A DNA stretch of 64,000 bases from Dehalococcoidia bacterium. Its GTDB lineage: Bacteria > Chloroflexota > Dehalococcoidia > Lucifugimonadales > UBA3495. Numbering within the stretch: the stretch's first letter is position 1; every line of letters begins with the position of its first letter. The DNA is taken from NCBI GenBank assembly GCA_965203985.1, contig CBDBDS010000006.1, forward strand, positions 16,588 to 80,587. Reading direction: 5' to 3'. Shown here piece by piece: positions 12,515 to 48,878 of the stretch. The position numbers and the translations under genes were made by a program. The notes under the pieces were generated by a model. The model ran no database searches. It was not told the DNA's origin and saw nothing but the letters and a program-made list of their open reading frames with translations.

Positions 12515-12548
12515 CGATGTACTCCTTCGATGTGGTGCTCGTTGATAG

Positions 12549-14288: not shown

Positions 14289-14628
14289 GTCTCGGTGTAC
14301 GGAATGGATGAAGCGTGGCACGTGGCACCTCCCTTGCGAACGCCAGGTAGGGGTACTTGCCACAGCATCCCAAAGCCTCGCACAAACTCCACAAGGAAGG
14401 CACGGAGGCCCCTTGTTGGCGCAACGATTCATGCGAGGTACGCCCCTGAGACAATTCCGACAGGGACGCACGGCAAGGTATTTAGGATGCTGTGGCGTTG
14501 CCACGATAGCGCGGCGTTCTATCAGTGTCAACGCCGGTCCGCCCTGTGGAAATATCGCCCTGAAGAATGGAGTAGCGGAATCAGTTCCTTTCAAGGCTGC
14601 GCCAAATCCCTGCGACTTCGAACTAACG

Positions 14629-14946
14629 TCATCCCTTCTGGACCGATAGGCGCTGCCAGAGGCGGCAGACCACCCAGGCGGTTGCGGCGCTTGGGATTGG
14701 CAACGCAAAAACGCCCGCATCGGTCACCAGGTTGTTGGGAAGAGTGAGGACCACGATCCAATACCACCCGATGGAGCAGGCCACCCCTACCGTTCCTCCC
14801 ACCAATCCGGCGACCGGGCCCTTTTGCCAGGTCATGCCTGCCATGCGCCGGACGGACGTCAAAATGGTCACCAATGCCGGAACGCACGTCCGGAGTAGCA
14901 CCAGCCACCAGAGGAAAAACAGCAGGAAGAAATAGGTGCTCATCAC
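14629..14946 (-). CDS. small membrane protein (about 3 TM), hypothetical
   Basis: 105-aa hydrophobic ORF (MMSTYFFLLFFLWWLVLL...). It occupies the space freed once the RCC1 gene start is moved to 14288. Confidence 0.45.
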   Translation of the reverse strand: MMSTYFFLLFFLWWLVLLRTCVPALVTILTSVRRMAGMTWQKGPVAGLVGGTVGVACSIGWYWIVVLTLPNNLVTDAGVFALPIPSAATAWVVCRLWQRLSVQKG

Positions 14947-23349: not shown

Positions 23350-24114
23350 TCAGAGGTCCGGATTATGGAGTCTGGCTTCCAGTTCGCGGATCCGGGCCTC
23401 GGCGGCTTCCCTAGCCTCGCGTTCGGCTCGGAGTTGTGCTTCGGCGGCGACACGGGCTTCGTGCTCGCTATCGGCCCGGGCGCGCTCGGTGTTGAAGGTG
23501 GCGATGTGCTGCTCCGTTCTGGGGTCGTACCAGCCTAGTTGTCCCTGTTCCGACCGGAGGATCAGGTTCAACACGGTGCTGTAGCCCTGCAGGACGCCGT
23601 CGTCCAGTTCGTCGATCGGGATTGGCTGGTACACGCCGTCCACCAGCCGGTCGCCGGCCAGTCTGGTTCCGTGATGCTCTCCAGTCGGGTCAAACCGCCA
23701 GTACTCCAGGATACCCAGCGCGGCGTAGTCGTCGCGCTTGGGTCCGGTGTCCTCGCTGCCCGTGCTTCGGGACGCCACCTCCAGCACGAAGTCCGGCGGC
23801 TTGCCCTGGGCCTGCACGATGTAGCCGTTGTTGTCCCGGTACAGCTGTGGGTCGACGTCGAAGGCGATAAGCAGGTCGGGGACGCGGCGGTTGCGTCCGC
23901 TGGGCAGGCGCTGCTCGGGCATCATCGTGATGAAGCGTTCGGCGGTGACCAGGGTGGTTTCGGGGTTGCCGAGGTGCTGGAGCAGGTGGTGGGTGTTGCC
24001 CGGCTGGTGGAGGTGGTCGACGGTGCTCATCTTCTCGTCGTCTTGGCGTTCGGGAGGGTCGGGCAGCCGGAAGCGGCCGGGTGCCGTCGTGGCGGTGGGT
24101 TTGGCGGTGGTCAT
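23350..24114 (-). CDS. Uma2-family (DUF820) putative endonuclease with C-terminal coiled coil
   Basis: PDFVLEVASRSTGSEDTGPKRDDYAALGILEYWRFDP. Second family member in the window. Confidence 0.8.
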   Translation of the reverse strand: MTTAKPTATTAPGRFRLPDPPERQDDEKMSTVDHLHQPGNTHHLLQHLGNPETTLVTAERFITMMPEQRLPSGRNRRVPDLLIAFDVDPQLYRDNNGYIVQAQGKPPDFVLEVASRSTGSEDTGPKRDDYAALGILEYWRFDPTGEHHGTRLAGDRLVDGVYQPIPIDELDDGVLQGYSTVLNLILRSEQGQLGWYDPRTEQHIATFNTERARADSEHEARVAAEAQLRAEREAREAAEARIRELEARLHNPDL

Positions 24115-24283: not shown

Positions 24284-24519
24284 TTATCGCCGTCTCCCAC
24301 GGGCTAATAGCCGGAACTGCTCGACTGTCCACCCGGCTTGGACAATTATGGCTTCCATTGTGTTGGGAGGAATGTCCCGGCCCGATGCCGGGGTATGGGA
24401 ACCATTCGGTTGCCCTTGCAGGCTTGGGTGTGCCTGCTGCCTTCGTTGATGGTCCATCCGTCGGTGTGAAACGCCTGAACGACCTCGGCCAGGGTATAGC
24501 CGGGTACGCGTGGCGGCAT
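24284..24519 (-). pseudogene. hicA: HicA-like toxin, single-nt frameshift
   Basis: Frame 1 reads MPPRVPGYTLAEVVQAFHTDGWTINEGSRHTQACKGNRMVPIPRH. It then continues in another frame as GRDIPPNTMEAIIVQAGWTVEQFRLL. The shift is at CGGGCCGGG near 24390. Its ATG overlaps the hicB stop (TGATG). Confidence 0.65.
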
Positions 24520-25178
24520 CAGGCGCTTTGCTTTTGTTTCCAGAGGGCGATGTACGTGCTTTCCAGGGCGGCCACGGCGGCCTCGTCGTATGGATCGCGC
24601 CGCAGGGCGGCGTCGTAGTCGGCGATTGCGGCGTCGTAGTCCCGCAAGTTGAAGTGGGCGTCGGCGCGGCCACGGTATGCTTCGGCGTTTTCGGGCGCTA
24701 TGGCGATGGCGGCGGTGTAGTCGTCCATCGCCCACCGGTGGGCGTTCTTGTTCAAGAATGCGCCGCCGCGCTTGATGAGAGCGCTGACGTCTTCAGCATT
24801 GTGCGCGAGTGTCTTGTCGCAGCCGGTGATTATTTCGTCCCAGTCCAGAGGTCGCACCGTGGCTTGCTCGGTTTGATGTGAACTCTCGGTGTCATATTCA
24901 GCGGCTGTTTTGGCCATGGCGCCGGGCCAGAGGGGCGGCTGTTGTCCTTCATTGATGTAGCTGTCCAGGAACAGGCTGATGGCCTCGGCAATCATCTCCA
25001 GGGCTTCTTCTTTGTCGTCGCCTTGGCTGGCGCAGCCGAGTTCGGGGCAGAGCACGGAGTACCCTGGGTGGTCTGGCTCTTTGATCAGGAGGACCTGGTA
25101 ATCGCGCCGCTTGAAGCGCGTGATGAGTTGGCTTTGGGCTTCGGCCCTGCTCGGTTCGCTGGACATGGCGTACTCCAT
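24519..25178 (-). CDS. hicB: HicB-like antitoxin domain fused to TPR repeats
   Basis: N-terminal YQVLLIKEPDHPGYSVLCPELGCASQGDDKEEALEMIAEAISLFL (HicB fold). C-terminal TPR-like AEAYRGRADAHFNLRDYDAAIADYDAALRRDP. The track ORF start at 25601 is an over-extension. The ATG at 25166 is an alternative start. Confidence 0.7.
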   Translation of the reverse strand: MEYAMSSEPSRAEAQSQLITRFKRRDYQVLLIKEPDHPGYSVLCPELGCASQGDDKEEALEMIAEAISLFLDSYINEGQQPPLWPGAMAKTAAEYDTESSHQTEQATVRPLDWDEIITGCDKTLAHNAEDVSALIKRGGAFLNKNAHRWAMDDYTAAIAIAPENAEAYRGRADAHFNLRDYDAAIADYDAALRRDPYDEAAVAALESTYIALWKQKQSA

Positions 25179-25405
25179 GAGGGTTTGGGTAGCGGGGTCA
25201 GGCCTTCGCTCACGGGATGCCAGTGTATCTTTTGGTGTGTAGTTGCGAAAGGTACGCGAATGCCATGATGGACGCAGCTGGGTTGACTCCGCTCCGCCGT
25301 ACGCTATCACGGGGCTATCCCAGCACGCGCGGCCCGACGCAGAGGCTTGCCGGACGCGTGCTACGGTGGTTGAGCCGTTGGCCGTCGCCACGTCTGGGAG
25401 TTGCC

Positions 25406-25615
25406 TTACTTGACGCCCAATTTCGTCCGCAATTCGTCGACTTCGGCGTTGCCCAGGATGCGGAACACGTTGATGCTCCGGTCCTCTTCGGCTACGCCCC
25501 TGACGGCGTGACGACCGTTCTTCATCGTTACCAACTCCATGGAGTCGTCGGCGATGTCGACCTTCCGCTTGAGTTTGACCGCGTAGGCTTGCAGGGGCCA
25601 TTCCATGATTTTCAC
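25406..25615 (-). CDS. hypothetical small protein
   Basis: 69-aa ORF with AAGGAG 8 nt upstream of its ATG. No family recognised. Confidence 0.5.
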   Translation of the reverse strand: MKIMEWPLQAYAVKLKRKVDIADDSMELVTMKNGRHAVRGVAEEDRSINVFRILGNAEVDELRTKLGVK

Positions 25616-34215: not shown

Positions 34216-35400
34216 TCAAACTGCCGTTGTGTCAACAATATCATCATCGTTATCGTCCTGGCGCAAAGCTTTTTGAGACTCTTCCATGATGCGAGCGAAC
34301 TCGTCGGCGGCTTCGGCCTGCCACCCCGGCAGGGCGTGGGCATAGGCCCTCATCGTGATGGCAGTGTTGGCGTGTCCCAACCGTTCGGAAATCACTGCGG
34401 GGTGGATGCGTTTGTTGAGCGAGACCGACGCGTGGAAGTGGCGGAGCTTGTGGGGGCTGACCTCGGGATGGCCGACCTGCTTCCCCAATCCTTGCACCAG
34501 GCGAGTCAGCCGCATGGGATTGACCCATCTGCCCAATTCGTCGGCGAACACTATCCCCTGGTCCTCATACGCGCCGGCCAGCAGGCTTTTGTTCTGTTCC
34601 TGGCGTTCCTTATGCTGACGCAGCACTTCCAAACTGCCGGCGTCCACATTGATCGTCCGGTTTCCGCGGGCGGTTTTGGGCTTGGTCAACTGCAGCCCGT
34701 TGGATCGCCTTCCCAATGAGGATACTATCCGAATCGTAGCATTTTCGAAGTCCACGTTGCTCCACACCAGAGCCAGAAGCTCCCCGCGACGGATTCCGGT
34801 GTAGGCCAGCAGATGCAGGGCGGCATACAGCCAATCGTCCTGTTCGGCCGCCAAGTCCAGCATCCGGAGCACAATGTCCACTGGGGGCGATTCGGCCTCA
34901 CGGTTCGGGTCCGGGGGCGCCTTCGCCGCGGCGACCGGATCACGGATGATCAACTCCATGCGCAACGCGTGTTTGATTGCTCCGGACAATACCACCCGCA
35001 CCAGGTTGACGCCGACGGGGTCCATTCCATGCTCCAGTAGCTTCTGTTGCAGAGCCTGGACGTGGCTTGGAGACAGTTTGTTCAGTTCAATGTGCCCGAG
35101 TGCCGGCTGCAGGTGGTTCTTGACGATGCCGCGGTAGCGATCCTCGGTGGCCTGGCTCAAATGGCCGACCACGCATTCGGTCAGCCAGCGCTCCAGCCAG
35201 TCGCGCATCAGGATCCGCTCGTTGGACGGAACGACGCCGCCGTCCAGTTCGGTCAGCAGTTCTCGCAGACGCCGTTGGGCTTGCTTCTTGTTGCCCTTGA
35301 CCGTGACGAACCGGCGGACGCGTTTGCCACGTTCGTCTCGGCCGAGATCGAGGGTGATCTCCCAGCTATTTTGTCCCCGTTTCCGAATGCTTCCCGTCAT
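34216..35400 (-). CDS. int: tyrosine site-specific integrase
   Basis: 394-aa ORF. N-terminal SAM-like arm/core-binding region (IRKRGQNSWEITLDLGRDERGKRVRRF). Catalytic region with ...GIRRGELLAL... and HKLRHFHAS...LGHANTAITMRAYAH. Confidence 0.9.
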   Translation of the reverse strand: MTGSIRKRGQNSWEITLDLGRDERGKRVRRFVTVKGNKKQAQRRLRELLTELDGGVVPSNERILMRDWLERWLTECVVGHLSQATEDRYRGIVKNHLQPALGHIELNKLSPSHVQALQQKLLEHGMDPVGVNLVRVVLSGAIKHALRMELIIRDPVAAAKAPPDPNREAESPPVDIVLRMLDLAAEQDDWLYAALHLLAYTGIRRGELLALVWSNVDFENATIRIVSSLGRRSNGLQLTKPKTARGNRTINVDAGSLEVLRQHKERQEQNKSLLAGAYEDQGIVFADELGRWVNPMRLTRLVQGLGKQVGHPEVSPHKLRHFHASVSLNKRIHPAVISERLGHANTAITMRAYAHALPGWQAEAADEFARIMEESQKALRQDDNDDDIVDTTAV

Positions 35401-35899: not shown

Positions 35900-36829
35900 C
35901 GGGTATGCCCTCCTATCATGTGGTTCCGGTTTCATCGCGTGCCGACAATTCGACGATCGATCCGGTTATCGCGGCGGCGGTGTTCCTTAGATCGTCTCCG
36001 GACACGAAATGTTTCTCCGCCTGCACATGGTAGGGAATCCCGGCGAGAGCGCGCTGACGGGGTACGGAAACCGGGGTGCAGCGCCAGTAACTGCGAGCCC
36101 AGATGCATCGTGGAACAGATTTCCGGCGCCGTCGGTTCTTACGGTGCCGCCGCATTCTCAAGGCATGGTGGATCGCGTTCGGACGAAGGCAGACCTCGGC
36201 CCTTGCAGTGGGCTTCTCCATAGCGTCCACGCCGCCAGGTTCAGGCGGACCGGTGATGCTCACCAATCCCCAATATGCAATCAACTGATGTGCATGGTGA
36301 GCCGTTCAGGGAAAGGCGGCTACACGCCGGTGTGCCAGTTTCACGCAGCGTAGAACCGCAGTTGACGCTCCGGGACAGTGAGGCCGCGCTCGTTCCTATG
36401 GGCCTTTGCCATGGCCGGGGCGATCAGACCACCGCCGGATCACCTGGTAAACCGTTCTTCTCGTCCACTGTCTACACGGGCAATCGGCGCTAATGACGTG
36501 CGTCGACGTACCCGACGCGGACGGCGTGACGATTGAAAAGGCAACCATGTGGTCGCGAGAATGGCAAAATTGGCGCACGAATCGCCGCGGAACCGGCCGG
36601 GTGCGGGAGCGGCTACGCCATCGGAACAAGGTCAACGTTGGAGAAAGGCCGTTTGATCCGACCGTAACCCGTGCTGCCCGACAATCCGCCGGTTGGTGAC
36701 CAGGCCGACACGGGGGCGGCGAGGACTATGATCAGCAAGGCCGCCTATTCCTGAGGATCTGGCCTCGGAAGTTGACCGGCACGCGCGCGAGGGATACGCG
36801 CGCAGGTCGGAAGGGTTCGGGGTTCGGCA

Positions 36830-37486
36830 TCAACCGGGTTTGGCATTTGCCGCGCGATAGAGAAATCGGGTTAGCCCGATACGACTGGGTAATTTTGCGA
36901 TCTCCTCGTCAGTCATTTCCGATATTGCCAGTTCGAGCGAAGTCCTGGCTCGGCCAGCCGGCGTTGCGGCGTGTTCACCTGCCGTTGTCGAGTGCGGCGC
37001 ATATCCATCGCTGTAAAACCAATCTGGCGACTTGACGTAGAGTCGCGATAATTTCTCGAGGATCTCCCGCGATGGTCGTGAGGCGCCGTTTTCATAGCGT
37101 AATACCGTATTGCGGTTCACGCCGATCCTCTCGGCCGCCTCTGCTTGCGTGAAACCTTCTTCCCTACGCGCTTCCCGCAGCAATCGCCCGTTTAGGATTG
37201 GCTTCTTCCGTTTAGGATTGTAAGAGTGCGATTCTTCGTAAAACGAGGCGAAATCGCCTAACTGCTCGCCAAGTAATTCGCCAAGCCGCCGCTTGTTCTC
37301 CTCGCTGGGTTCCACTCTGCCTGATTCCCAGTTTCGTACGGTCTGGGTCGAAACGCCCAGCTCCGCCGCCACATCCTCTTGGCGAAGGCCCGCAGGAATG
37401 CGAGCATGGCGCAGTTCCAGGCCGAAGGATCTCAATGCCACCCTCGCACCGGCAGCGGCCACGGTGTTTGCACCATGTATTTTCAT
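36830..37486 (-). CDS. tandem XRE-family HTH regulator (two HTH_3 domains)
   Basis: LRQEDVAAELGVSTQTVRNWESGRVEPS and FTQAEAAERIGVNRNTVLRYENGASRPS. Divergent from the tandem-unit array. Confidence 0.8.
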   Translation of the reverse strand: MKIHGANTVAAAGARVALRSFGLELRHARIPAGLRQEDVAAELGVSTQTVRNWESGRVEPSEENKRRLGELLGEQLGDFASFYEESHSYNPKRKKPILNGRLLREARREEGFTQAEAAERIGVNRNTVLRYENGASRPSREILEKLSRLYVKSPDWFYSDGYAPHSTTAGEHAATPAGRARTSLELAISEMTDEEIAKLPSRIGLTRFLYRAANAKPG

Positions 37487-37533
37487 TGTGTTCCCCTTGG
37501 TCCGTGTATGATGGCTGATGCGCGCCAGGTCAC

Positions 37534-37564
37534 TTGCGCACGACCGCTCCTGCGATTATAGAAT
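37534..37564 (+). promoter_or_regulatory. promoter-like site, unit 1
   Basis: TTGCGC-N19-TAGAAT (alternatively N17-TATAGA). It faces away from the XRE gene. Confidence 0.4.
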
Positions 37565-37570
37565 CGTCGC

Positions 37571-37830
37571 CTCCAATTTGCAACATAAACAATAATCGTT
37601 TCATACGTTCCACTACCCGTATTTATGCGACAAAGCGGTATTTCAGACGAAAATCGATGCGTTCGAGCGGGAATGGGGGGGCAACCGTCCCCCCGGAATT
37701 TCCGGGTAGTCGGGAAGTACGAGGGACGACCCGAAGCGAGCGTTGCAATCGTCGGCGTCCGGCAGGGGAAAGCGCTGGTAAAGCCAGCTAACCAACGCGC
37801 GAGAAGCAACCATGAGCCGTCAGAGTTTTT
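37571..37830 (+). ncRNA. candidate ~260-nt non-coding RNA, copy 1 (unclassified)
   Basis: Conserved core from just after the -10 to a T5 run (37826-37830). It contains TTGCAAC ... GTTGCAA long-range complementarity, TCGGG-N15-CCCGA and GCTGG-TAAAG-CCAGC hairpins. No ORF is conserved across copies. Confidence 0.3.
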
Positions 37831-37993
37831 GGGATGCCCCCGTAGCGTTTATGTTGGCTGATGCGCGCCAGGTCGCTCGCGTCGACGAGACATTGCCGCT
37901 GGTAGCCGCGGCAACCTGATTTTCAGCACAAATCGTGCTACATGAATAATAATCGATTACCGCTGCGCACACCCCTGGTCATGCTACGCCAAG

Positions 37994-38024
37994 TTGACCA
38001 CGAGCGGTCCTGCGATTGTAGAAT
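37994..38024 (+). promoter_or_regulatory. promoter-like site, unit 2
   Basis: TTGACC-N19-TAGAAT (alternatively N17-TGTAGA). Confidence 0.45.
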
Positions 38025-38030
38025 CGTCGC

Positions 38031-38288
38031 CCCCGTTTTGCAACATGAACAATAATCGTTTCATACGTTCTACAACCCGCACATATGCGACAAAGCGGTA
38101 TTTCAGACGAAAATCGATGCGTTCGAGCGGGAATGGTCGGCAACCGCCCCCCAGCAGTTTCCGGGTAGTCGGGGAGTACGAGGGATGACCCGAGGCGAGC
38201 GTTGCAATCATCGGCGTCCGGCAGGGGAAGGTGGTGGTAAGCCAGCTAACCAACGCGCGAGAAGCAACCATGAGCCGTCAGAATTTTT
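38031..38288 (+). ncRNA. candidate non-coding RNA, copy 2
   Basis: Same core as copy 1. T5 run at 38284-38288. Confidence 0.3.
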
Positions 38289-38454
38289 CGGATGCCTCCC
38301 TGCAGCGTTTATGTTGGCTGATGCGCGCCAGGTCGTTTGCGTAGATGAGACATTCCCGCTGGTAGCCGCGGCAACCTGATTTTCAGCACAAATCGTGCTA
38401 CATGAATGATAATCGGACTCCGCTGCGCACACCCCCTAGTCATGCTGCGCCAGC

Positions 38455-38485
38455 TTGATCACGAGTGGTCCTGCCATCGTAGAAT
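38455..38485 (+). promoter_or_regulatory. promoter-like site, unit 3
   Basis: TTGATC-N19-TAGAAT. Confidence 0.4.
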
Positions 38486-38491
38486 CGTCGC

Positions 38492-38750
38492 CTCACGTTT
38501 GCAACACAAACAATAACCGTTCCATACCTGTAACTACCCGCACATATGCGACAAAGCGGCGTTGCAGGCGAAAATCGATGCGTTCGAGCGGGAATGGTGG
38601 GCAACCGTCCCCCCGGAATTTCCGGGTAGTCGGGAAGTATAGGGGACGACCCGAGGCGAGCGTTGCAATCGTCGGCGTCCGGCAGGGGAAGGCGCTGGTA
38701 AAGCCAGCTAACCAACGCGCGAGAAGCAACCATGAGCCGTCAGAATTTTT
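38492..38750 (+). ncRNA. candidate non-coding RNA, copy 3
   Basis: Same core as copy 1. T5 run at 38746-38750. Confidence 0.3.
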
Positions 38751-38913
38751 GGGATGCCCCCGTAGCGTTTATGTTGGCTGATGCGCGCCAGGTCGCTCGC
38801 GTCGACGGGACATTGCCGCTGGTAGCCGCGGCAACCTGATTTTCAGCACAAAGCGTGCTACATAGATAATAATCGATTACGGCTGCGCACACCCCTGGTC
38901 ATGCTACGCCAAG

Positions 38914-38944
38914 TTGACCACGAGCGGTCCTGCGATTGTAGAAT
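38914..38944 (+). promoter_or_regulatory. promoter-like site, unit 4
   Basis: TTGACC-N19-TAGAAT, identical to unit 2. Confidence 0.45.
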
Positions 38945-38950
38945 CGTCGC

Positions 38951-39209
38951 CCCCCGTTTTGCAACATGAACAATAATCGTTTCATACGTTCTACAACCCG
39001 CACATATGCGACAAAGCGGTATTTCAGACGAAAATCGATGCGTTCGAGCGGGAATGGTCGGCAACCGCCCCCAGGAATTTCCGGGTAGTCGGGAAGTACG
39101 AGGAACGACCCGAGGCAAGCGTTGCAATCATCGGCGTCCGGCAGGTGAAGCCGGTGGTAAAGCGGGCTAACCAACGCGCGAGAAGCAACTGCGGGACACC
39201 GGAGTTTTT
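38951..39209 (+). ncRNA. candidate non-coding RNA, copy 4 (3' end diverges, leads into the ParB-like gene)
   Basis: Same core up to GCGCGAGAAGCAAC, then a different tail ending in a T5 run at 39205-39209. It lies ~135 nt upstream of the ATG at 39344. Confidence 0.3.
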
Positions 39210-39343
39210 GGGGTTCTCCTGACGCCGGCTGGCGCCGGGCTTTCGATTGGCCAGCTGATCGACGATCGGGCCCCTCCCTGCCGCTTTTTCATAATGTCCG
39301 TGTGCCCGATTTCAGCGGCACAGTCGAAACGAGGCGGTGCATC

Positions 39344-40375
39344 ATGGCGGTACAGGGTAAACGGCGCGTTGCGGAAACCTCCCATGGTCAACTGGAACTG
39401 ATACCTGGTTCGGCGGGACCCGACACAGGGGAAAAGGGTCAACCGGGAAAATCCGACGTTCCGCCGCCACCGGCTGTGGCGCGACGAAACGGGGACCACG
39501 AGAGTGACTACACGCAGCACGAGCTGGGTCGGCTGCTCGGGAACCGTGGTCCGGCGTCCTGGGACCGGTTGCGCGCCGCCGTGCGGGGACAGTTGGTCGC
39601 GGACTGGGAGAGCGGCGCAGATACCGTTGTGGACGTGATCCTGTTGAACGACCAGGTCCTCTGGGATTGGGACCGGTTCACGATCGCCAGGGAGCTGGAT
39701 CTGAGCGTGCGATTTCAGGAATACGTCGGCGGCGATCCCGTCGCCTTCCTGTGTGCTCAGGGGCTGCACGAACGGCAGCTGAGCCAGACTGGAAAAGCGC
39801 TGATCGTCGTGTCCATGTGCGAATGGCGCGGCAGGGGACGGCCCCAAAAATCCACAGTGGCTGTGGATTTTCCCAATGACACGGGCCGACGGTATGCGAT
39901 CGACGAGATGGCAGACCTGGCCGGAGTGGGTACCACGCTGATCAGCCAAGCCAAGGTAATTTGCTCGCTCGGTTTGGTGGAGGACGTTGCAGAAGGGAAA
40001 GTCGGCTTTGCGGAGGCGTACCGGCGTGCCCGAGTGGTGCGGGACTCGGAATGGGAACGAGACGTGTTGAACGGGGGAATGCCCTTTGATGACGCGTATG
40101 CGCGTGCTTTGGCGAACACACCCGATGTTCCTGAGGTACGCCCTCGTCAAACGAGATCCGTCAGGTCGCTGATCGAAGAGGTGGGTGAGTTGGAGCGGTC
40201 CAAAGCTGGGTTGGTGGAGGAGTTGCGGTTGCTGCGGGAGGACAACGCGGCGCAACGGTCGGCGGCGGCTGCCACTGCCATGGCACTGGAGCGAGAGCGA
40301 ATCAGGGCTGAACAAGCGGAGGCCGAGGTGAAACGACTGCGCGCGGCCCTCACACGTGCCGGACTACAGGCCTGA
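39344..40375 (+). CDS. ParB-N-terminal-domain-like protein with C-terminal coiled coil
   Basis: ILLNDQVLWDWDRFTIARELDLSVRFQEYVGGDPVAFLCAQGLHERQLSQTGKALIV follows the ParB/Srx-like phage-protein pattern (I..dg.i.DG..R..A...lg....f....g.d...f....N..RR.L...Q.A). The ATG at 39344 has GAGGCGG upstream. The track start is the GTG at 39302. Confidence 0.55.
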   Translation: MAVQGKRRVAETSHGQLELIPGSAGPDTGEKGQPGKSDVPPPPAVARRNGDHESDYTQHELGRLLGNRGPASWDRLRAAVRGQLVADWESGADTVVDVILLNDQVLWDWDRFTIARELDLSVRFQEYVGGDPVAFLCAQGLHERQLSQTGKALIVVSMCEWRGRGRPQKSTVAVDFPNDTGRRYAIDEMADLAGVGTTLISQAKVICSLGLVEDVAEGKVGFAEAYRRARVVRDSEWERDVLNGGMPFDDAYARALANTPDVPEVRPRQTRSVRSLIEEVGELERSKAGLVEELRLLREDNAAQRSAAAATAMALERERIRAEQAEAEVKRLRAALTRAGLQA

Positions 40376-40545
40376 CCATGGCAGGTCGTCAAACCAACCG
40401 AGAACTCGATGGTCATTCGTTGCAGCGCAAACATAACGGTTCACCAGAATGCATTGATCGCGTCATGCCGCGACACGGTCCCGGATAGCTGGGACCACTA
40501 AATTCCGTAACATCGGAACAGGACAGCATTTGACAGGAGGCGACT

Positions 40546-41562
40546 ATGGCACTAAGAGTGACCAAAGACGGAAAAGCATTGGTTTTCCAGCCGGAACAAC
40601 GCGAACTGTGCTCGAGGGAGGATACTGCTCAGACCCTGAGGAATCTCCACGGTCTCGGGGCGGTGTTTGCTCTGGACACTGTCGGATGGATCCAGAGATA
40701 CCAGTTGTTCCTCCGTATCGGTTCGGTCGAATCCGGAATCGGTCCACGCATCACGCATTCCTTTGAGGGAGTGCAACAAGCCGAGAAAAAAGCCTCTGAT
40801 TGGCTCCAGCTAAAGGCAGGTGAATACGGGCTGGTGCAGCCCCTGACTCTGTCTGATCACACCATGCTGCCGATCGCGGATTGTTCGCTCGAGGATGCTC
40901 GCGACCGGTGGGGGGAAGTATTCGCGGCCTTGGTCGCCCGTCCAGACGACTTGTGGCCCGGCAAGTTAGGTGTGCGAGTTGTCCTGCGACCGGCAGGTCG
41001 GGATTGGAGAGAGCACTTTATGAAGACCGCTCCCGTCGGCGATGAGGCACGGGGGACGAACATCGATCGCGAACGATGGGCTGACAGGGCTGGCGGGACG
41101 CCGTTCCACGCGCAAATTCAACTACTGGCGATCTGTCAGGACGATCCCACCCGGGTAGATCTCGCGAAGGCGGATGTGGCTAGGTTGGCCGAGCTGGTGC
41201 CTGCACTGACGGGGCAACGCGACGCTTGGAAACTTGGTACCAGTCTCGAGCGTTCCATGACATGGGCGGCTCTTAGATCACCAATCAGGTCTGCCCGCAA
41301 GCCAACTCTACCCTGGCCAGAGCTAAAGTTTCTGCCGGACGAGGGAGATTCGCCATATACGCTCAGTGCCGAGGAGGCGGCCGCGCTGTGGCCGGCTTGG
41401 ATGCCACGGGTGCGATCGCGTCACAGAACGCCGCAACATCTGACCACGACCGATGTGGAACTGCCCGCCGCACCTGAACGCGAGGGCACAGCCACGCCGG
41501 CCCGATCCGATGCAGCGGAGACGCGGCATGATTCCGCAACGAGTGCCGGATGGTTGCAGTGA
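40546..41562 (+). CDS. hypothetical protein
   Basis: 338-aa ORF with a strong AGGAGG SD. No family recognised. Confidence 0.65.
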   Translation: MALRVTKDGKALVFQPEQRELCSREDTAQTLRNLHGLGAVFALDTVGWIQRYQLFLRIGSVESGIGPRITHSFEGVQQAEKKASDWLQLKAGEYGLVQPLTLSDHTMLPIADCSLEDARDRWGEVFAALVARPDDLWPGKLGVRVVLRPAGRDWREHFMKTAPVGDEARGTNIDRERWADRAGGTPFHAQIQLLAICQDDPTRVDLAKADVARLAELVPALTGQRDAWKLGTSLERSMTWAALRSPIRSARKPTLPWPELKFLPDEGDSPYTLSAEEAAALWPAWMPRVRSRHRTPQHLTTTDVELPAAPEREGTATPARSDAAETRHDSATSAGWLQ

Positions 41563-41672
41563 GCGGGCCCGCGTTGATGCTGCGGATCCGGGCGGGTGGC
41601 TGTCGTCTCTGCCCCAAGCGCGGTTTCCGGCGCGGAAGACCGTGTTGGCCGGCTCTGGGGTTTCAACGCCTC

Positions 41673-42293
41673 CTATGACGCCGATGCGGACCGGAAGCCC
41701 ATCCGGGGCTTTCGGGATGGGACCAAGTCGACTGTATCTATGCCCTCCATGAGCGCCGATACCTCCGCCAGTGCCTGCCACCGCTCCAGGGGCTGTTGGA
41801 GCCGGCCTCGGGCCGCGGCATCGGCCAGCTTACCGGTGCAGCCCTCCAGGCCCCAGAGTAGCGGGATGCGCCCGCGGCGGGCCAGGCGCTCGATACGCTG
41901 GTCGGGGTCCGTATCGAATAACGCCAGGACCGGCGCAATCGGCACCGGGCGGTTCAGACCCTCCTGCAGGGTGTCTCTGATCGACAGCGCCTCCACCCGG
42001 GCCTGTTCCAAGGGCGACGGCGTGATCCGAGGTCCCGACCCGGTATTGACGCGCCACTGCCCACCTTGTAGGAAGTGGGGGGCATACCTCACCGTCAGAC
42101 AAAAACGGCCGATGTTCAACAGCCAGGCGCCGAACACCGGCTCCGGCCAGTTGGCCTCGGGACCCCAGTAGCGCAGGAAGAAGGCGGGCACGCCGTCTGT
42201 GCCGCCGCGGGTCAGCAGGACAGCGGTGGCCCGATCCTGGGCGGCGTTTCCGTTATCGTGGTGGTGGTCGGGATGTAGATGTTCATGTTGCAT
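41673..42293 (-). CDS. NERD-like paralogue C (catalytic residues degenerate), His-rich N-terminus
   Basis: AAGGAG SD. It aligns with 45665..46414 and 42719..43450 over IGRFCLTVRYAPHFLQGGQWRVNTGSG...SPLEQARVEAL...IAPVLALFDTDPDQRI...PLLWGLEG. Confidence 0.6.
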   Translation of the reverse strand: MQHEHLHPDHHHDNGNAAQDRATAVLLTRGGTDGVPAFFLRYWGPEANWPEPVFGAWLLNIGRFCLTVRYAPHFLQGGQWRVNTGSGPRITPSPLEQARVEALSIRDTLQEGLNRPVPIAPVLALFDTDPDQRIERLARRGRIPLLWGLEGCTGKLADAAARGRLQQPLERWQALAEVSALMEGIDTVDLVPSRKPRMGFRSASAS

Positions 42294-42718
42294 GAGGTCT
42301 GCTCCTTGGCGCCGCGCTCTAGCGGCGCGGGTCTTCGTGTTGGATATTGATGTGGCCGACTACGAGCCCTCCCCGGCGACGATGCGGCACGCCCCCTCCC
42401 AATTGCCCGACGTCGAATACCAGGACGTCACGGACAATTGTGATACCGGAGAAAAGCTGACCAACGGGTCAACCAATACGCGGTGGTCAGCCGGACCCGG
42501 TTCGTCGCCAACATCCACCCTCCGGTGGCACTTCCGCTCACCGGAGCGTGTCAGCGTCGGCGCCAGCACCCTGTTTCGACTGTAGGCGCAGTTGTCCCGG
42601 GCTCTGGGAGCGTCGGCGCTTCTTGTCATCACCGACTTTGAAATGTGCGAAAGTAGCAAAGTGGAATTTGGGCCGGGGGCGGAGGGTGCCCAAACAGGGC
42701 CACTCCACCCTCCTTTCC

Positions 42719-43450
42719 TTACTGTCCTGCGGCGGTGAACGGTGGAAACGCGTCGCCATCCACCGCGGATCCATTGACGTTAATGGTCACCCGGGCGCCG
42801 CTGGCCACGTTGACGATGACGCTCTTGGCGTCGTTGAGGTTCAGCACCCCCGATTCCAGGTCCACTTGGACTTCTTCCGGGGCCGCGCCACCTTCAGGCG
42901 AGGGGCCTCTGGTCAAGGCTTTCACGTCCCTTTGGATGTATTTGGAGCTGAGGTCGGACCGGCGTTTGTCTTCCGGCAGTTGCCGGATGACGCGTTCCAC
43001 CAGGTCGTCCAGGCCCCAGAGGACCTTGACGCCCGGACTCCCCCGCTCTTCCAGGATCGTCTCGTCGGGATCCATGTCGGTGAATACGGCGACCGGAACG
43101 ACGAAACCGCCAAAGTTGAAGTCACGGTGAATTTCATCCCGGGCCGCCATGCCGGCTTCCCAGACGGTTTCGAGCGGGTCTGCCACCTCGATGTCTCTGC
43201 CGTCAGCGCCGCGGTGATACCAGTTATCGCCTTCCATTCCGTAGTTGCCGGGGAGAAAGGAGACGGCAAACCGCCCGATTTTCTGGACTCCGACCACGCA
43301 GTGGGGCGAGGTGCGGTTGCCCGACACCCAAGGGCGCCACACCGCGGCGCCTTCTCGATCACTGGCTTCAAACTGGGCCATGGCGTTGCGCTCGGCGGAA
43401 CTCAGCGGAGTTTGGCTGCTTCCGTTGGTCAGGTGGTTAATTACTTGCAT
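42719..43450 (-). CDS. NERD-like paralogue B (degenerate core) with C-terminal beta-rich extension
   Basis: GAGGTG SD before the ATG at 43450. IGRFAVSFLPGNYGMEGDNWYHRGADG...DPLETVWEAG...VVPVAVFTDMDPDETI...VKVLWGLDD. Confidence 0.6.
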   Translation of the reverse strand: MQVINHLTNGSSQTPLSSAERNAMAQFEASDREGAAVWRPWVSGNRTSPHCVVGVQKIGRFAVSFLPGNYGMEGDNWYHRGADGRDIEVADPLETVWEAGMAARDEIHRDFNFGGFVVPVAVFTDMDPDETILEERGSPGVKVLWGLDDLVERVIRQLPEDKRRSDLSSKYIQRDVKALTRGPSPEGGAAPEEVQVDLESGVLNLNDAKSVIVNVASGARVTINVNGSAVDGDAFPPFTAAGQ

Positions 43451-43726
43451 CAGTTGCACCTCATGGTGACGTGTTGTGGCTTGGCTGCGGGACAAACGCA
43501 AATGCGGGCGGCCCATGATTCCAAATGGACCGCCCACAGCATTCGGCGCACGGGTGGTTTGGTGATGGTTGGCGACCGAGAGCCGGCCTCCCGAATTACA
43601 GGTGGGCCGCGCGGGCAATGGTCGTCGGGTCGAGTGTTCATTTGCGTCTGCTTCCTGTCGTGGGCATCGGTTGTCGGCTTCGTCGCGGCGGTGCCCGTCA
43701 AGTTGGTTCCGGCCGCAATTCTCACG

Positions 43727-45508
43727 TCATGCTCGTGTCCCACGAGGAGGGACGCCTTGACCACCGCGTGGTCCCATGCGCACCACGACCCGCTTCGCGC
43801 GCAAACCCGTAACCCGCCCCGGCGGTGGTGGCTGGACCCGATGCGGGTCGCGAGGAGCTTCTGCCGGACCGGTCCGGAAGCGCTGGCGCGCCAACGCCCT
43901 CAACTCTTCGCCGGTGAGATCCGCCCAGGGCCTTGCCATCCGCCGGATGGGATCGAACCGCGCCCGGGGCGGCTCTCCCGAGCTCAGGACCAGCAAACGC
44001 CTGGCCCGGGAAAAGGCCACGTAGTGCTGCCGCATGTGATCGAAGCCGGCGATGCGGTCGTCGGGCTCCAAGGGCCTGCGCCGGGCGTAGGGCAGCAATA
44101 CCCGGCCCACCGGGTCAACGTCGCGGTTGTTGAAGTCAAGGGAACCGGCCACCACCACGTCCCACTCCAACCCCTTGGCCCGATGGATGGTGGTGACCGC
44201 CACCTCGCCGGGTCCCCGGCGTCGACCGGTCCCATCGGCAGTGGAACCTCGCCTGGGGAAGGCGGCGGGAATGTCGGCATAGTCCAGGGCGTCCATGTAG
44301 CGGCCCGCCACCTCGTCGCGCACGCTGTGCAGCAGCAGGGCCACCTGGGAATAGTCGCCGATCACACGGTTGCGTTTCAGGAACCGCAGCAGGTCCACCA
44401 GTTGGTCCTCCTCGTCCCCCGGACTCCTCCCTTCGATGGAGATCAGGGCCGGGTAATCGGCGTCCTCCGCACGCCGTGGGGTGATGGTCTTTTCGTGCCG
44501 GAAGGATGGGAGGCCGGGATTGGGATTGGACCAGTTGGCCGACGCCATCCACCGGTCGCAGGCCCGAACTATGACGCCGTGGCTGCGGTGGTTGGAGGTG
44601 AGGCTCACCACGCGGCAGTCGGGGAAGCGTTGGGGGAAATTCAGGATGTTCTCCACAGTGGCGCCGCGGAATCGGTAGAGGGCCTGGTCCTCGTCGCCCA
44701 CCACGCACAGGTTGCCGTGGGTTTGGGACAGCTGCGTGAGCAGACGCTCCTGGACGTGACTGGTGTCCTGGTATTCGTCGCACAACAGGTGCACTATCCC
44801 GCCCGAGATCTCAGCCGCGGTCTCCTCGTCGTCCTCCAGGAGTTCCACCAACCACCGTTGCAGGTGGCCGAAATCGGCCGCGCCTTGATCAAGCAACAGG
44901 TTCTCGTAGCGCCGGTAGGATCGGCCCAACGCGGCGGTGAAGCGCCGGCCCGAGTCGATGAGTTCCCGGGGGTCGATGAGTTCGTCGCAGATGCGGTCGA
45001 AGTACTTGGCCGCATTGCGCACCACGGCGTCGGGCCGCCGCCATCCCCGTCGTTCCAGCCGGCCCAGGTCGGGACCGAAGACCTCACCCAGGTGGCGGGC
45101 CAGCAGGCCCATCCTCTCGTCTTCGCTCAGGACCCGGAACCGGCCACGTAAGCCAATGCGTTTACCCAGACGCCTCAGCTGTTGGGCGCAGAAACCGTGG
45201 AGTGTGGTGATGCGCACCTGCGACGCGTCGCCGTCATAGCCGGCGGCCGAGACCGTGGCGTCGAAGCGCCGGCGCAACTCCCGGGCCGCGGCCCGGCTGT
45301 AGGTGCATAACAGCAGGTTCCGGGGCTCGACTGCGCCCAGCATCAACAGGTTGGCCGAACGCCGGACGATGGCCAGGGTTTTGCCCGCGCCCGGTCCGGC
45401 AATGCCCAGGACGGGACCCTCAAGGTGTCCGATCAACTCAACCTGCCGATCGTCCGCCTCCGGCTGCAGGCGGAGAATGGCGGGGGCTATGGTGTTGGCG
45501 CTGCTCAT
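43727..45508 (-). CDS. UvrD/Rep-family SF1 helicase
   Basis: Walker A GPGAGKTLAIV. Also LLCDEYQDTS, VVGDEDQALYRFRGATVENI, TIHRAKGLEWDVV and YVAFSRARRLLVLS. Confidence 0.9.
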   Translation of the reverse strand: MSSANTIAPAILRLQPEADDRQVELIGHLEGPVLGIAGPGAGKTLAIVRRSANLLMLGAVEPRNLLLCTYSRAAARELRRRFDATVSAAGYDGDASQVRITTLHGFCAQQLRRLGKRIGLRGRFRVLSEDERMGLLARHLGEVFGPDLGRLERRGWRRPDAVVRNAAKYFDRICDELIDPRELIDSGRRFTAALGRSYRRYENLLLDQGAADFGHLQRWLVELLEDDEETAAEISGGIVHLLCDEYQDTSHVQERLLTQLSQTHGNLCVVGDEDQALYRFRGATVENILNFPQRFPDCRVVSLTSNHRSHGVIVRACDRWMASANWSNPNPGLPSFRHEKTITPRRAEDADYPALISIEGRSPGDEEDQLVDLLRFLKRNRVIGDYSQVALLLHSVRDEVAGRYMDALDYADIPAAFPRRGSTADGTGRRRGPGEVAVTTIHRAKGLEWDVVVAGSLDFNNRDVDPVGRVLLPYARRRPLEPDDRIAGFDHMRQHYVAFSRARRLLVLSSGEPPRARFDPIRRMARPWADLTGEELRALARQRFRTGPAEAPRDPHRVQPPPPGRVTGLRAKRVVVRMGPRGGQGVPPRGTRA

Positions 45509-45664
45509 GTAAGGATATCTCCAAAGTCTGGTTTCCGGTTTCGGACCGGTTTCGGGACCCGTCGCCTACGCCAACGGCGGCTCCCACGTGCAAATTGGGT
45601 TAAGCGCCTTGAAACGGGGTTGCGGTCACCCACCGGGTCGTAGGCGGGGCGGAAACGCCGGCGG

Positions 45665-46414
45665 TCAACCGGGATGGTCGGGCCTGGTGGAGGCGCGTTG
45701 TCCGATTTCCAGTCTCAACGCCTGGCCCCGGACCTCCAGCACGCGCTTCCCGTTGACCGCAAACGCCAGGACTGCCACGCTCGCCGGCGCGGAATCCGAG
45801 CCGGCTTCGGCATCAGCGTTGGATTCGGAATCCTCCCCGAACTCGCCCAACCGGATCTGGCCGTCGGAGATGGCGCAGACCTCCCGGGCGATGCGCTCCC
45901 GCGACAACCGGTTCGATATGCCCCGGGCGGATGCGATCTCGGCCAAGTCCGATACCAGGCTCGCCACGCCCCAGACCAGGTACACCCCCTTCCGCGCGGC
46001 CAGGCGCATGATGGCCTGGTCGGGTTCCATGTCGGGAAACACCAGCACGGGGACGACGAACGGGTTGTAGCCGGCGTGAGCCTGTTCGGCGATTTCATCG
46101 TGGAGATCCAGCGCCGCCAGCCAGGTCTCATCCAGCGGCGATGTCCCAACAGCCTGTACGCCGTTTCCGGTTTTCCGATGCCACTCGCCACCAATGAGTT
46201 GGTGGTGGCCACCCTTCACCTGTAGGGCGAAGCGGTCCAGACCGGCGATCCAGACGCCGAAGTCGAGTTCGATATGTCCGTAACCACGTCGCCACTCGTA
46301 ATAGACGAAACCCTGGCGGTCGCTGCCAGCCAGGGCTTCGTAAACTCGCTGCTCGGCTCGCCGTTTTGGCCTTTTGCGGCGACCGGACGGGAACGCTTTC
46401 GGGTACATTTTCAT
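45665..46414 (-). CDS. NERD-like paralogue A (best-preserved core)
   Basis: AAGGAG SD. HIELDFGVWIAGLDRFALQVKGGHHQLIGGEWHRKTGNG...SPLDETWLAAL...VVPVLVFPDMEPDQAI...YLVWGV follows the NERD pattern (D...E/Q.K..sG.i.g...W....nP..Q). Confidence 0.7.
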   Translation of the reverse strand: MKMYPKAFPSGRRKRPKRRAEQRVYEALAGSDRQGFVYYEWRRGYGHIELDFGVWIAGLDRFALQVKGGHHQLIGGEWHRKTGNGVQAVGTSPLDETWLAALDLHDEIAEQAHAGYNPFVVPVLVFPDMEPDQAIMRLAARKGVYLVWGVASLVSDLAEIASARGISNRLSRERIAREVCAISDGQIRLGEFGEDSESNADAEAGSDSAPASVAVLAFAVNGKRVLEVRGQALRLEIGQRASTRPDHPG

Positions 46415-46576
46415 GAGTCAACTCCTTGGTTATGTGCTGATTGTCAATTTTCACCATCTTTGATCGGGTAAACGGCGAGATTTTCACGGTCTTTGACCAC
46501 CCTGGGAGCCGCAAGGGCGACCATTGGTGCACTTCAAACCAGAGGTGCAGCGATGGCGTACAAGGAGGTTCCCCGA

Positions 46577-48114
46577 ATGGAGATAAAGGAAGTCATCCGC
46601 CGTTGGCAGGCCGGAGCCAGCCCAGGGGAGATCGCGTCAGGCACTCGGCTGTCCCGCAACACGGTGCGCAAGTACCTGGCGGCGGCACAAGCATAGGGCG
46701 TCAGCCGGGACGGACCGGTTCCCGACGAGGAGCAACTGAGCCGGCTGGCGGCGGTCGGTCAGACCGGGCCGCGGCAGGTGGAGACGCCCAGACAGGATCT
46801 GTTGGAGCCATGGGCAGGCCAGATCTACCAATGGCTGACCGGCGACCGGCTACAGATGGCCCGCATCCACGAGTTGCTGACCATCCGCGGCTGTGCGGTG
46901 TCTTATCCATCGCTGCGGCGTTTCATCATCAAGCGCAACTGGCGCAAGATCGGCAAGACCACGGTGCGGATGGAGGACACGCCGCCAGGTGAAGTGGCCG
47001 AGGCGGACTTCGGTCGGTTGGGCCTGATCAACGACCCAGCCATGGGCAAACGCAGGGTGGTGTGGGCCATGGTCATCGTGCTTTGCCACTCCAGACACTG
47101 CTTCGTCTGGCCCATGGTGCAGCACAAGCTGGAGGACGTCATCGCCGGCCTGGAAGCAGCCTGGGCTTTCTTCGGCGGGATGCCGCACTATCTGGTGATC
47201 GACAATTTCCCCGCCGCGGTGGTCGGGCCGGACCCATTGGACCCCCACTTCACCAAGGGCTTTCTGGAATACGCCCAGCACCGGGGCTTCATCGCCGACC
47301 CGGCGCGGACCGGCCACCCCAAGGACAAGCCGAAGGTGGAGCGTAAGGTCCGCTACACCCGGGGCGCTTCTTCAAGGACGCCGAATTTCACGGTCTGGCC
47401 CACTTGAGAGCCGAGACCCAGCGATCGTGTCTTCGGGTGGCAGGCCAACGGATCCACGGTACCACCCGCAAGAAGCCGCTGGTGGTCTTCCAGGATGAGG
47501 AGCGCCACACCCTCTTTCCCTGGGACGGCGAGCCCTACGACATCGGCGACTGGCGCACCGCCAAGGTCCATCCGGATCATCACATCCAGTGCCAGCAGGC
47601 GCTGTACTCGGTGCCGTCCCATCTCTGCCCGCCGAGACAGGAGGTGGAAGTCCGGCTGGACAGCAAGCTGGTACGCATCTACCACCGGGGCAAGCTGATC
47701 AAGACCCACCTCCGCCAGCCCAAGGGAGGCCGGTCCACCGACCCAGAAGATTATCCCGCCGTGCTGGCTCCCTACACCACCAGAGCGCCGGACCACATCA
47801 AGCGGGAGGCGACGAAGCTGGGGCCGGCGGTGGACGAATTCGCCCGGCGTCTTTTCGCCGGAGATCACCCCTGGTCCAAGATCCGGCAGGGATACAAGCT
47901 GCTACGCCTGGGTGAGCGCTACACCGCCCAACGCCTGGACGCCGCCTGCTGCAAAGCCCTCAAAGTGGATCTCATCGACGTGCGCCGTCTGGAACGCATC
48001 CTGGTGCAGGCCCTGGAAGATGAAGCCATGCCCCAACTTCCGCTGCCCATACCAGCCGGCCGCTTCGCCCATCCCGGCAGCGCCTTCGCTCTTGCTATAG
48101 GAGGCCAGTCATGA
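46577..48114 (+). pseudogene. istA: IS21 IstA transposase with in-frame TAG and one frameshift
   Basis: MEIKEVIRRWQAGASPGEIASGTRLSRNTVRKYL (AAGGAGG SD). In-frame TAG at 46694-46696. Frame change at the CGGGG run near 47355-47365 (...KVERKVRYTRG / RFFKDAEFHGLAHLRAETQ...HGTT). Confidence 0.8.
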
Positions 48115-48878
48115 CTCGCGTAACCGAACTCACGCCACTACTCAAGCGGCTGCGACTGGGGCAAATGGCCGCCACCCTGCCCGAGCGTATCGCCCTGGCC
48201 AGAAGGGAGCAACTGGACTACGTCTCCTTCCTGGAAATCATCCTCAGCGACGAGGTCAACCGCCGTGATCACCGCCGCATCGAACTGCGCCTCAATGGCG
48301 CCGGCTTCCAGGAGACCTGTCGTCTGGAAGACTTCGACTGGTCGGCGTCAATTACTCTTGACCGTCGCCTGCTGGACGCCGCCTTCTCATTAGAGTTTCT
48401 CGACAGGCACGAGCACGTCCTCCTGGTGGGACCGGCTGGCGTCGGCAAGAGCTTCCTCGCCCAGGCCCTGGGCTATGCTGCTGTCCGCGCCGGATACACC
48501 GTGCGCTTCAGCCACGCCGACGACTTCTTCAAGTCCATGACACAGGCCAGAGTGGACAACTCGGTGGACCGCGCTTTCCGCTCATTTCTGACGCCCGACC
48601 TGCTCATCCTCGACGATCTGGGACTGCACCGCCTCACCGCCCAGCAGTCCACCGACCTCTACGAGCTGATCCTCAATCGACATCGGTCGTCCAGCTTCGT
48701 CATCACCAGCAACCGGGCCGTCGACGAGTGGCTAGGTCTCTTTGACGACCCCATCCTCGGCAATAGCGCCTTGGACCGCCTGGCCAACGCCAGCTATCAG
48801 ATCGTCATCGAGGGCACCAGCTACCGGGAACGCCTGTCCCCACACCGCGTCCTGCTGGGCGCTGCAGGAGGTGATTGA
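48111..48878 (+). CDS. istB: IS21 IstB ATPase
   Basis: 255 aa. Walker A GPAGVGKSFLAQALG, LLILDDLG, ITSNR. Its start overlaps the istA stop. Confidence 0.9.
   Translation: MTRVTELTPLLKRLRLGQMAATLPERIALARREQLDYVSFLEIILSDEVNRRDHRRIELRLNGAGFQETCRLEDFDWSASITLDRRLLDAAFSLEFLDRHEHVLLVGPAGVGKSFLAQALGYAAVRAGYTVRFSHADDFFKSMTQARVDNSVDRAFRSFLTPDLLILDDLGLHRLTAQQSTDLYELILNRHRSSSFVITSNRAVDEWLGLFDDPILGNSALDRLANASYQIVIEGTSYRERLSPHRVLLGAAGGD

Follow-up and report, generated by a model that had tools for sequence, protein, structure and literature searches.

The window analysed here is a stretch of 64,000 nucleotides from a Dehalococcoidia bacterium (GenBank assembly GCA_965203985.1, contig CBDBDS010000006.1, positions 16,588 to 80,587 of the forward strand), and our subject is a group of genes on its minus strand that encode a helicase (Hel) and three small proteins, which we call A, B and C. 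An earlier reading made from the letters alone, the sequence-only reading, had proposed four genes on this strand, each with its own Shine-Dalgarno (SD) sequence; all four open reading frames (ORFs) were recovered in place, and an SD-like motif precedes each of the four start codons. Gene A (45665-46414, 249 amino acids (aa), SD-like AAGGAG) is the first gene of the module and is separated by a spacer of 156 nt from the helicase gene (43727-45508, 593 aa, SD-like GGAG). The spacer between the helicase gene and gene B contains, on the minus strand, a GC-rich hairpin with a 14-bp stem and a T-rich tract, detected by a terminator scan (43503-43538). Gene B (42719-43450, SD-like GAGGTG) encodes 243 aa from its ATG; a TTG at 43618 is a possible alternative start, but the alignment with homologues begins at residue 1 of the protein read from the ATG. 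Gene C (41673-42293, 206 aa, SD-like AAGGAG) completes the group. The window holds one module, with A, B and C as its only three paralogues.

Three small paralogues and a helicase

As the sequence-only reading had supposed, the three small proteins can be aligned with one another, and they are true paralogues, with BLASTP scores far above chance (A against B, E = 3e-21 and 28% identity over 226 residues; A against C, E = 8e-22 and 34% over 134 residues; B against C, E = 6e-10). The motifs it had listed as shared (GRF, W, PL(D/E), PV..F.DM.PD..I and LWG) are conserved columns of the family alignment. A set of 5.8 billion proteins contained 547 homologues of A, all unnamed and without a Pfam domain, and a profile search of 1.84 billion representatives returned 553 family clusters at 50% identity. 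Every one of the 150 representatives listed for these 553 clusters is a stand-alone protein of at most 377 aa, with no fused NERD-helicase form among them, and typing of the best 150 family members by BLAST gave 137 A-type, 8 B-type and 5 C-type sequences. A and B, not C, carry a disordered linker followed by a C-terminal beta-hairpin of the type V-x-V-x-x-G-x-x-V-x-V (window 45665-45800 in A, with modelled strands at residues 214-220 and 223-230; window 42719-42850 in B), and this hairpin may be a docking tail for complex assembly.

The three proteins had also been read as following the layout of NERD nucleases, and this part of the proposal stands by an indirect route. None of the window proteins matches the Pfam NERD profile (PF08378), even at E <= 1, so that their membership rests on transitive homology. 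Matches to this profile were obtained for 12 of 87 diverse relatives, one of them above the curated cut-off: this is P0238, which shares 35% identity with A and reaches 36.0 bits where the cut-off is 22.1, its residues 18-123 covering positions 4-111 of the 111 in the profile, while P0190 scores 21.8 bits against the same cut-off. An AlphaFold (AF2) model of A was built from a diverse alignment of 122 sequences, with a predicted local distance difference test (pLDDT) score of 87.4; an earlier model from a shallow alignment had a pLDDT of 69 and was barely informative in Foldseek. The core of the model is alpha-beta-beta-beta-alpha-beta (H16-29, E35-41, E50-56, E61-66, ..., H93-111, E120-126), a restriction-endonuclease-like fold for which the support is consistent but weak. 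Its best Foldseek match in BFVD is a phage "Nuclease-related domain protein" (probability 0.95, template modelling (TM) score 0.40), and its best matches in the PDB are SfsA, Cdn1, Card1, EndoMS/NucS, McrC and Can2; SfsA, Card1, EndoMS/NucS, McrC and Can2 are PD-(D/E)xK enzymes. A sequence search of the PDB with a single sequence returned nothing, and a match of the family profile to TetR was dismissed as chance. The transitive Pfam matches, the fold matches and the motif pattern support A, B and C as NERD-like proteins of the PD-(D/E)xK fold.

The A-type sequences carry both the D...(D/E)xK signature and the N-terminal helix Glu, and the B-type and C-type sequences do not. The window A keeps the catalytic set E21, E49-x-D51 and Q65-x-K67, and among 129 A-type sequences E21 is present in 115, D51 in 124 and K67 in 125, with Q at position 65 in 101 and E in 21. 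In the window B, S-F-L stands in place of Q-V-K; of 50 B-type sequences, 33 have T at position 65, and position 67 is L or M in 41 and P in 3, K never occurring among the residues tabulated. In the window C, whose N-terminus is rich in His, V replaces D51 and T-V-R replaces Q-V-K, and among 14 C-type sequences V occupies position 51 in 12 and T position 65 in 12. The observation that only A retains a catalytic-looking ELDF...QVK thus extends to the whole family, and the proposed arrangement of one active-looking and two inactivated paralogues agrees with the residues, the B-types lacking K67 and the C-types D51, which would leave both catalytically dead. D51, Q/E65, K67 and the FPDMxPD motif offer direct targets for mutagenesis.

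W78, P93-L94 and FPDMxPD (D128, M129, D132) are kept in all three subfamilies, which points to a structural or interface role for these residues. In close pairs, the ratio of nonsynonymous to synonymous substitution rates (dN/dS) is 0.27-0.59 for A, 0.24 for the helicase, 0.24-0.38 for B and 0.39-0.57 for C; all values are below 1, and purifying selection acts on all four genes. B is the fastest-evolving component of the module: B is 38% identical between the window and locus L004, and A, the helicase and C are 57%, 56% and 59% identical. These data bear on the idea that B and C are functionless, decaying duplicates of A, which would explain their loss of catalytic residues and the frequent absence of C. 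We find it hardly credible, as each forms its own subfamily with subfamily-specific conserved residues and intact reading frames (50 B-type and 14 C-type sequences), their dN/dS lies at 0.24-0.57, and B still follows the helicase in 34 of the 47 loci described below.

The helicase is a stand-alone superfamily 1A (SF1A) protein of the UvrD/PcrA/Rep type. It matches the Pfam families UvrD-helicase (PF00580, 4.2e-57), AAA_19 (PF13245), UvrD_C (PF13361) and UvrD_C_2 (PF13538), and motifs I (GPGAGKT), Ia, II (DEYQD), III (GDEDQALYRFRGA), IV, V (TIHRAKGLEWD) and VI (VAFSRARR) can all be read intact in the translation, in agreement with the earlier description of an SF1 helicase with complete motifs. 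Its C-terminal tail is rich in Pro and Arg, and Pfam detects no nuclease domain in its 593 aa. Among the top 120 helicase homologues there is no NERD-helicase fusion that could serve as a Rosetta stone; all are stand-alone and contain UvrD-type domains only. Against NCBIfam it gives partial matches of 128-184 bits to PcrA, UvrD and Rep (three TIGRFAM models, cut-offs 911-1144) and of 58-95 bits to AddA and RecB (cut-offs 696-861). Judged by its sequence, it is not an orthologue of PcrA, UvrD or Rep. In PADLOC, the best match is RTasHel (1.4e-41), then GajB (3.4e-41), and the best 25 of its 48 matches are all to RTasHel and GajB models.

A UvrD-family helicase combined with a PD-(D/E)xK nuclease could also serve housekeeping or stress DNA repair, as an AddAB/RecBCD-like end-resection complex built from separate subunits, inactivated paralogues included. 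RecBCD and AddAB themselves use inactivated paralogous domains (RecC, the AddB helicase domain) for recognition or as scaffold. However, the helicase comes nowhere near the NCBIfam equivalog cut-off of PcrA, UvrD, Rep, AddA or RecB, and the module is multi-copy, patchy and frequently pseudogenised, and lies in variable regions rich in insertion sequences (IS) rather than in conserved core neighbourhoods. We consider a repair role very unlikely.

Conservation and composition of the module

Sequence patterns derived from close relatives were scanned against 185,579 species-representative genomes, so that the range found covers close members of the family. The scan returned 47 loci, all in metagenome-assembled genomes of Dehalococcoidia/SAR202. 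The helicase gene adjoins an A-type gene in 40 of them, and in 34 a B-type gene follows the helicase, giving the order A-Hel-B. A C-type gene is present in only seven loci, three times after B, as in the window, and four times directly before A. The conserved unit is therefore the three genes A-Hel-B, with C as an accessory, and the four-gene unit of the sequence-only reading has to be reduced accordingly to a core that C may join on either side. The genomic linkage of homologues to a helicase, whose absence would have refuted that reading, was confirmed by the neighbourhood survey: the UvrD helicase is still found beside relatives that are only 28-35% identical, including those on a Tara Oceans contig and in a permuted Hel-A'-B' locus. 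All-against-all clustering of the flanking ORFs, together with Pfam and PADLOC censuses, revealed no universally linked gene beyond A, Hel and B, and in the literature searched, nothing like it had been described from SAR202 or from sponge symbionts.

It is common for a genome to contain 2-4 diverged copies of the module. These are 65-96% identical in nucleotide sequence, a similarity that is essentially confined to the module and does not extend to the unrelated flanks; this indicates that most copies are old paralogues and not recent transpositions. The helicase gene is frameshifted, interrupted by an IS or internally deleted in about 11 of the 47 loci. Some loci have gained genes, with two of the B-type (L019, L037, L044), two of the A-type (L011, L035, L042) or two A-helicase pairs with an integrase between them (L032), which suggests that duplication in the family is ongoing and that the A/B/C composition is not fixed. 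In one subgroup (L002-L004 and L014) an unrelated gene of 282-286 aa sits between B and C (around 12342-13202 and 6022-6900), and an Nmad3 gene (PF18754) with two small ORFs lies divergently upstream of A in all three contexts of this protein.

Nine or more other loci have a counterpart of the hairpin in the Hel-B spacer: at 75-95 nt upstream of B, strong hairpins with a T tract occur in L005, L052, L046, L036, L028, L024, L021/L015 and L053, and the stem sequences differ. This conservation across loci suggests that A-Hel is transcribed as one unit and B(-C) as another. From its sequence, the hairpin is likely an intrinsic terminator or attenuator between the A-Hel transcript and B(-C), and the A and helicase genes are probably co-transcribed. 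The L005 hairpin (GGGCGGCCCATGATTCCAAATGGACCGCCC) is the exact reverse complement of the window hairpin (GGGCGGTCCATTTGGAATCATGGGCCGCCC), so the palindrome is flipped between these close relatives with its structure preserved. No Rfam match that would indicate a non-coding RNA in the spacers was obtained in window 36000-47000.

A conserved terminator-like hairpin that parts B and C from A-Hel is also what might be expected of a selfish addiction module of the toxin-antitoxin (TA) kind, in which A, with the helicase, would be toxic and the separately transcribed B and C would neutralise A by forming inactive heteromers. The scaffold residues that the dead paralogues share with A would fit such a role, as would degraded copies that have lost the helicase and kept A and B (L012, L025), a helicase loss that occurs often, and TA-type neighbours such as Fic, HEPN/NTP_transf_2 and AAA_21. 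However, in L048 and L049 the A-Hel pair is intact and neither a B- nor a C-type match was obtained, the distant P0264 locus is likewise A-Hel without B, and lone A genes are found in L007, L016, L030 and L041; an antidote that is strictly required would be expected at all these loci. We judge this explanation improbable, and since it overlaps with abortive-infection defence, it does not fully exclude a defence role.

Mobile elements and other neighbours

On the upstream side of A the window carries an IS21-family element (46493-48878), with an istA gene split over three frames (46493-46696, 46778-47407 and 47404-48114) and an intact istB (48111-48878). By comparison with the closest loci, L055 and L007, the element ends ~25-30 nt upstream of the A start codon. 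Beyond C lie an unknown protein (40546-41562) and a second unknown protein of 357 aa, U357 (39302-40375), with no match in Pfam, PADLOC or PHROGs. A tandem array (37539-39189; 460-bp unit, 3.6 copies, 88% match) separates U357 from a helix-turn-helix (HTH) gene (36830-37486), and a tyrosine integrase (34216-35400) is found 6 kb from the module. Each array unit contains look-alike ORFs of ~95 aa on either strand that are unlikely to be genes, and the array has no Rfam match; it could be an iteron-like or satellite-like part of an integrative element.

The surroundings of the other loci are variable and rich in transposases, IS elements and integrases. A Pfam census of 142 flanking ORFs from 35 loci, taken without a matched control, counted as the commonest families Fic (5), DDE transposases (5), Uma2 (3), ParA-like (3), integrase (2) and AAA_21 (2), together with IS21 genes. 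Among the PADLOC models matched in the same ORFs were SoFic (5 matches, the best at 4.9e-76), components of MADS, kinases like PD-T4-6 and helicases like DrmD. Genes of the Fic/SoFic type, 5 of the 142 ORFs, are the commonest annotated neighbour. The sequence-only reading had described the cluster as cargo of an integrase-bearing island, a context typical of defence. The case for such a context is weak in the window, where the neighbours are IS21, unknown proteins, a repeat, an HTH gene and an integrase; across the 35 other loci, neighbours of a defence type (SoFic, MADS components, DrmD-like) do recur.

The modules of L032, L034 and L053 have a homologue of the window integrase (43-48% identity) less than 10 kb away, and those of L044, L053 and L055 a homologue of U357 (36-45% identity) at a similar distance, which hints at a family of integrative elements that often carries the module. 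The module might then serve its integrative or transposable elements, in DNA replication, excision, end processing or competition with rival elements. Its 2-4 copies per genome, the recurrence of both neighbours and the dominance of IS and integrase genes in the flanks are in line with such a service, and UvrD-like helicases are known cargo and replication genes of integrative elements (PMC6563490). However, no integrase, U357 or other gene is consistently linked to the module (tyrosine recombinases make up 2 of the 142 neighbours), the copies within a genome are old, with a nucleotide identity of 65-90% confined to the module and unrelated flanks, no terminal inverted or direct repeats bound it, and no copies were found in phage, plasmid and IMG/VR collections. 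We consider a function for mobile elements unlikely.

A mobile cassette with sharp ends was rejected, as there are no terminal repeats and only the paralogous coding segments are repeated. Homology between older copies seems to begin a few bases before the ATG of A, but subgroups of loci share an upstream leader of 100-150 nt.

Further away, ~18-22 kb from the module, a transposase-rich stretch of the window encodes a protein with MarR and Replic_Relax (replication-relaxation) domains (19955-21727), and the same stretch contains a protein matching the PADLOC candidate PDC-S03 (23350-24114, 3.6e-13). The window also encodes a 1312-aa protein with fn3, cadherin, Calx-beta and Big_2 repeats (5228-9166), a 723-aa protein with RCC1 repeats (12549-14720) and a protein that combines TPR and a HicB-like domain (24519-25601). 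Sponge symbionts typically encode large repeat proteins of such a eukaryote-like kind, and from these proteins and one locus record (MPNC01 bin87) the SAR202/Dehalococcoidia carriers appear to be sponge-associated symbionts.

Interpretation and comparison with known systems

We put at roughly 55% the probability that the window contains one copy of a lineage-restricted, self-contained nuclease-helicase module whose most probable role is defence against phage or mobile DNA. Lineage restriction, the multi-copy state, frequent decay, variable surroundings rich in mobile elements and the logic of its domains make the module resemble nuclease-NTPase defence systems, which commonly form complexes (bioRxiv 10.1101/2025.07.10.664194). 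We infer alike its enzymatic activities, the formation of a complex, the roles of B and C and the defence function. In the proposed mechanism, A would be a NERD-type PD-(D/E)xK nuclease, divergent but with its metal-binding and catalytic residues in place, and the UvrD-like SF1A helicase would load on or translocate along the target DNA using ATP while A cuts it. B, and in a minority of copies C, would be catalytically dead paralogues that keep the fold and the W78/P-L/FPDMxPD surface; together with A and the helicase they would probably form a hetero-oligomer that has only one active site, and act as non-catalytic recognition or regulatory subunits, B evolving fastest. The module would defend the cell in the manner of Nhi-like, Gabija and Hachiman systems. 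The more specific proposal, to which we give somewhat less than an even chance, is an immune system particular to SAR202/Dehalococcoidia, in which one or two fast-evolving pseudo-nuclease paralogues would gate or target a NERD nuclease and a UvrD-like helicase within a heteromeric nuclease with a single active site.

Several points weigh against defence as the role of the module and against its proposed mechanism. A, B and C have no match in Pfam, NCBIfam, PADLOC or PHROGs, permissive thresholds included, and the fold matches of the A model are weak, none of them reaching statistical significance (E 0.01-0.4, the best 0.01-0.02; TM 0.27-0.40). The NERD-positive relative P0238 has no helicase within 8 kb. 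In the window copy, the IS21 element may have displaced or removed the native promoter of the module, and its immediate neighbours include no specific PADLOC match or recognisable defence gene. The defence-island-like surroundings of other loci are suggestive only, the census being uncontrolled, and the multi-copy state and the linkage to integrase and U357 would fit a mobile-element function equally well. Finally, the hetero-oligomer of A, B and C is purely conjectural, and the defence role is putative.

A stable module that joins a motor to a live nuclease and to one or two dead copies of that nuclease would be an unusual architecture, and a protein family of about 550 clusters at 50% identity, absent from curated libraries, is now tied to NERD nucleases. 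If the module is a defence system, the nuclease-NTPase class would be extended to a split form with expanded paralogues, and the module would offer a clean model for the recruitment of pseudo-enzymes as regulatory or recognition subunits. Should the proposed roles be true, duplication of an effector followed by catalytic death would have created a sensor or regulator subunit of a defence architecture. It would also extend what little is known of immunity in the uncultured SAR202/Dehalococcoidia, whose genomes are crowded with mobile elements.

The stand-alone proteins of Pfam NERD are among the closest known relatives of the small proteins. Both groups display, in the same order, the N-terminal helix Glu, D, (E/Q)xK, W, P-L and the VPVLVF strand beta4; they share the fold, some family members pass the Pfam threshold, and the best structural match of A is a phage NERD protein. 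They differ in that the window proteins fall below Pfam detection, that Q replaces the E of the (E)xK motif in ~80% of A-types, and that the present family is distinguished by the invariant FPDMxPD motif and by the C-terminal beta-hairpin tail of A and B.

Nhi-like and Mokosh type I systems contain NERD domains (PMC10952713), and the combination of a NERD/PD-(D/E)xK nuclease with an SF1 helicase is common to Nhi, Nhi-like systems and the present module (PMC10952713; bioRxiv 10.1101/2025.07.10.664194). By analogy, the general mode of action, helicase-coupled cleavage of foreign DNA, is probably shared as well. The sequence-only reading had called the module a candidate split version of the Nhi-like kind, and we do not extend this to membership. 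Nuclease and helicase are encoded here by separate genes and not in one polypeptide, with no fusion among the 150 listed family representatives or the top 120 helicase homologues, and duplication of the nuclease gene has produced one or two dead paralogues beside an active-looking one. PADLOC gives no family for A, B or C at E <= 1, and no Nhi model appears among the best 25 of the 48 helicase matches, RTasHel and GajB being the nearest. The module is thus not a member of Nhi, and the likeness is one of analogy.

A second group of relatives accompanies defence reverse transcriptases. RTasHel, the UvrD-like helicase associated with UG35, is the best PADLOC match of our helicase (1.4e-41), and UG34 reverse transcriptases are accompanied by a fusion of NERD and helicase, RTasNERD-Hel, which in a defence context likewise pairs these domains (PMC9226505). 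When 87 members of the NERD-like family were compared with PADLOC, only weak matches to RTasNERD-Hel and DrmD were obtained, and RTasNERD-Hel was the only recurring one (7 of 87 members, best 1.3e-3, sub-significant). Unlike our module, RTasNERD-Hel is a single fused polypeptide without dead paralogues, and neither the window nor the gene-called or censused flanks of related loci showed a reverse transcriptase.

Gabija, like the present module, combines a nuclease with a UvrD-like helicase as two components, and GajB is the second-best PADLOC match of our helicase (3.4e-41). However, GajA is an OLD-family ATPase/TOPRIM nuclease and not a PD-(D/E)xK enzyme, and no module protein has a GajA match in PADLOC; lacking GajA, the module is not a member of Gabija. 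AddAB and RecBCD also pair a UvrD-family motor with a PD-(D/E)xK nuclease, but they do so in large fused subunits encoded once per genome at core repair loci, whereas the present module is multi-copy, associated with mobile elements and often degraded, with a helicase far below the respective cut-offs, and it is not a member of these complexes either. The module is most likely an undescribed relative of the nuclease-helicase systems that act against viruses.

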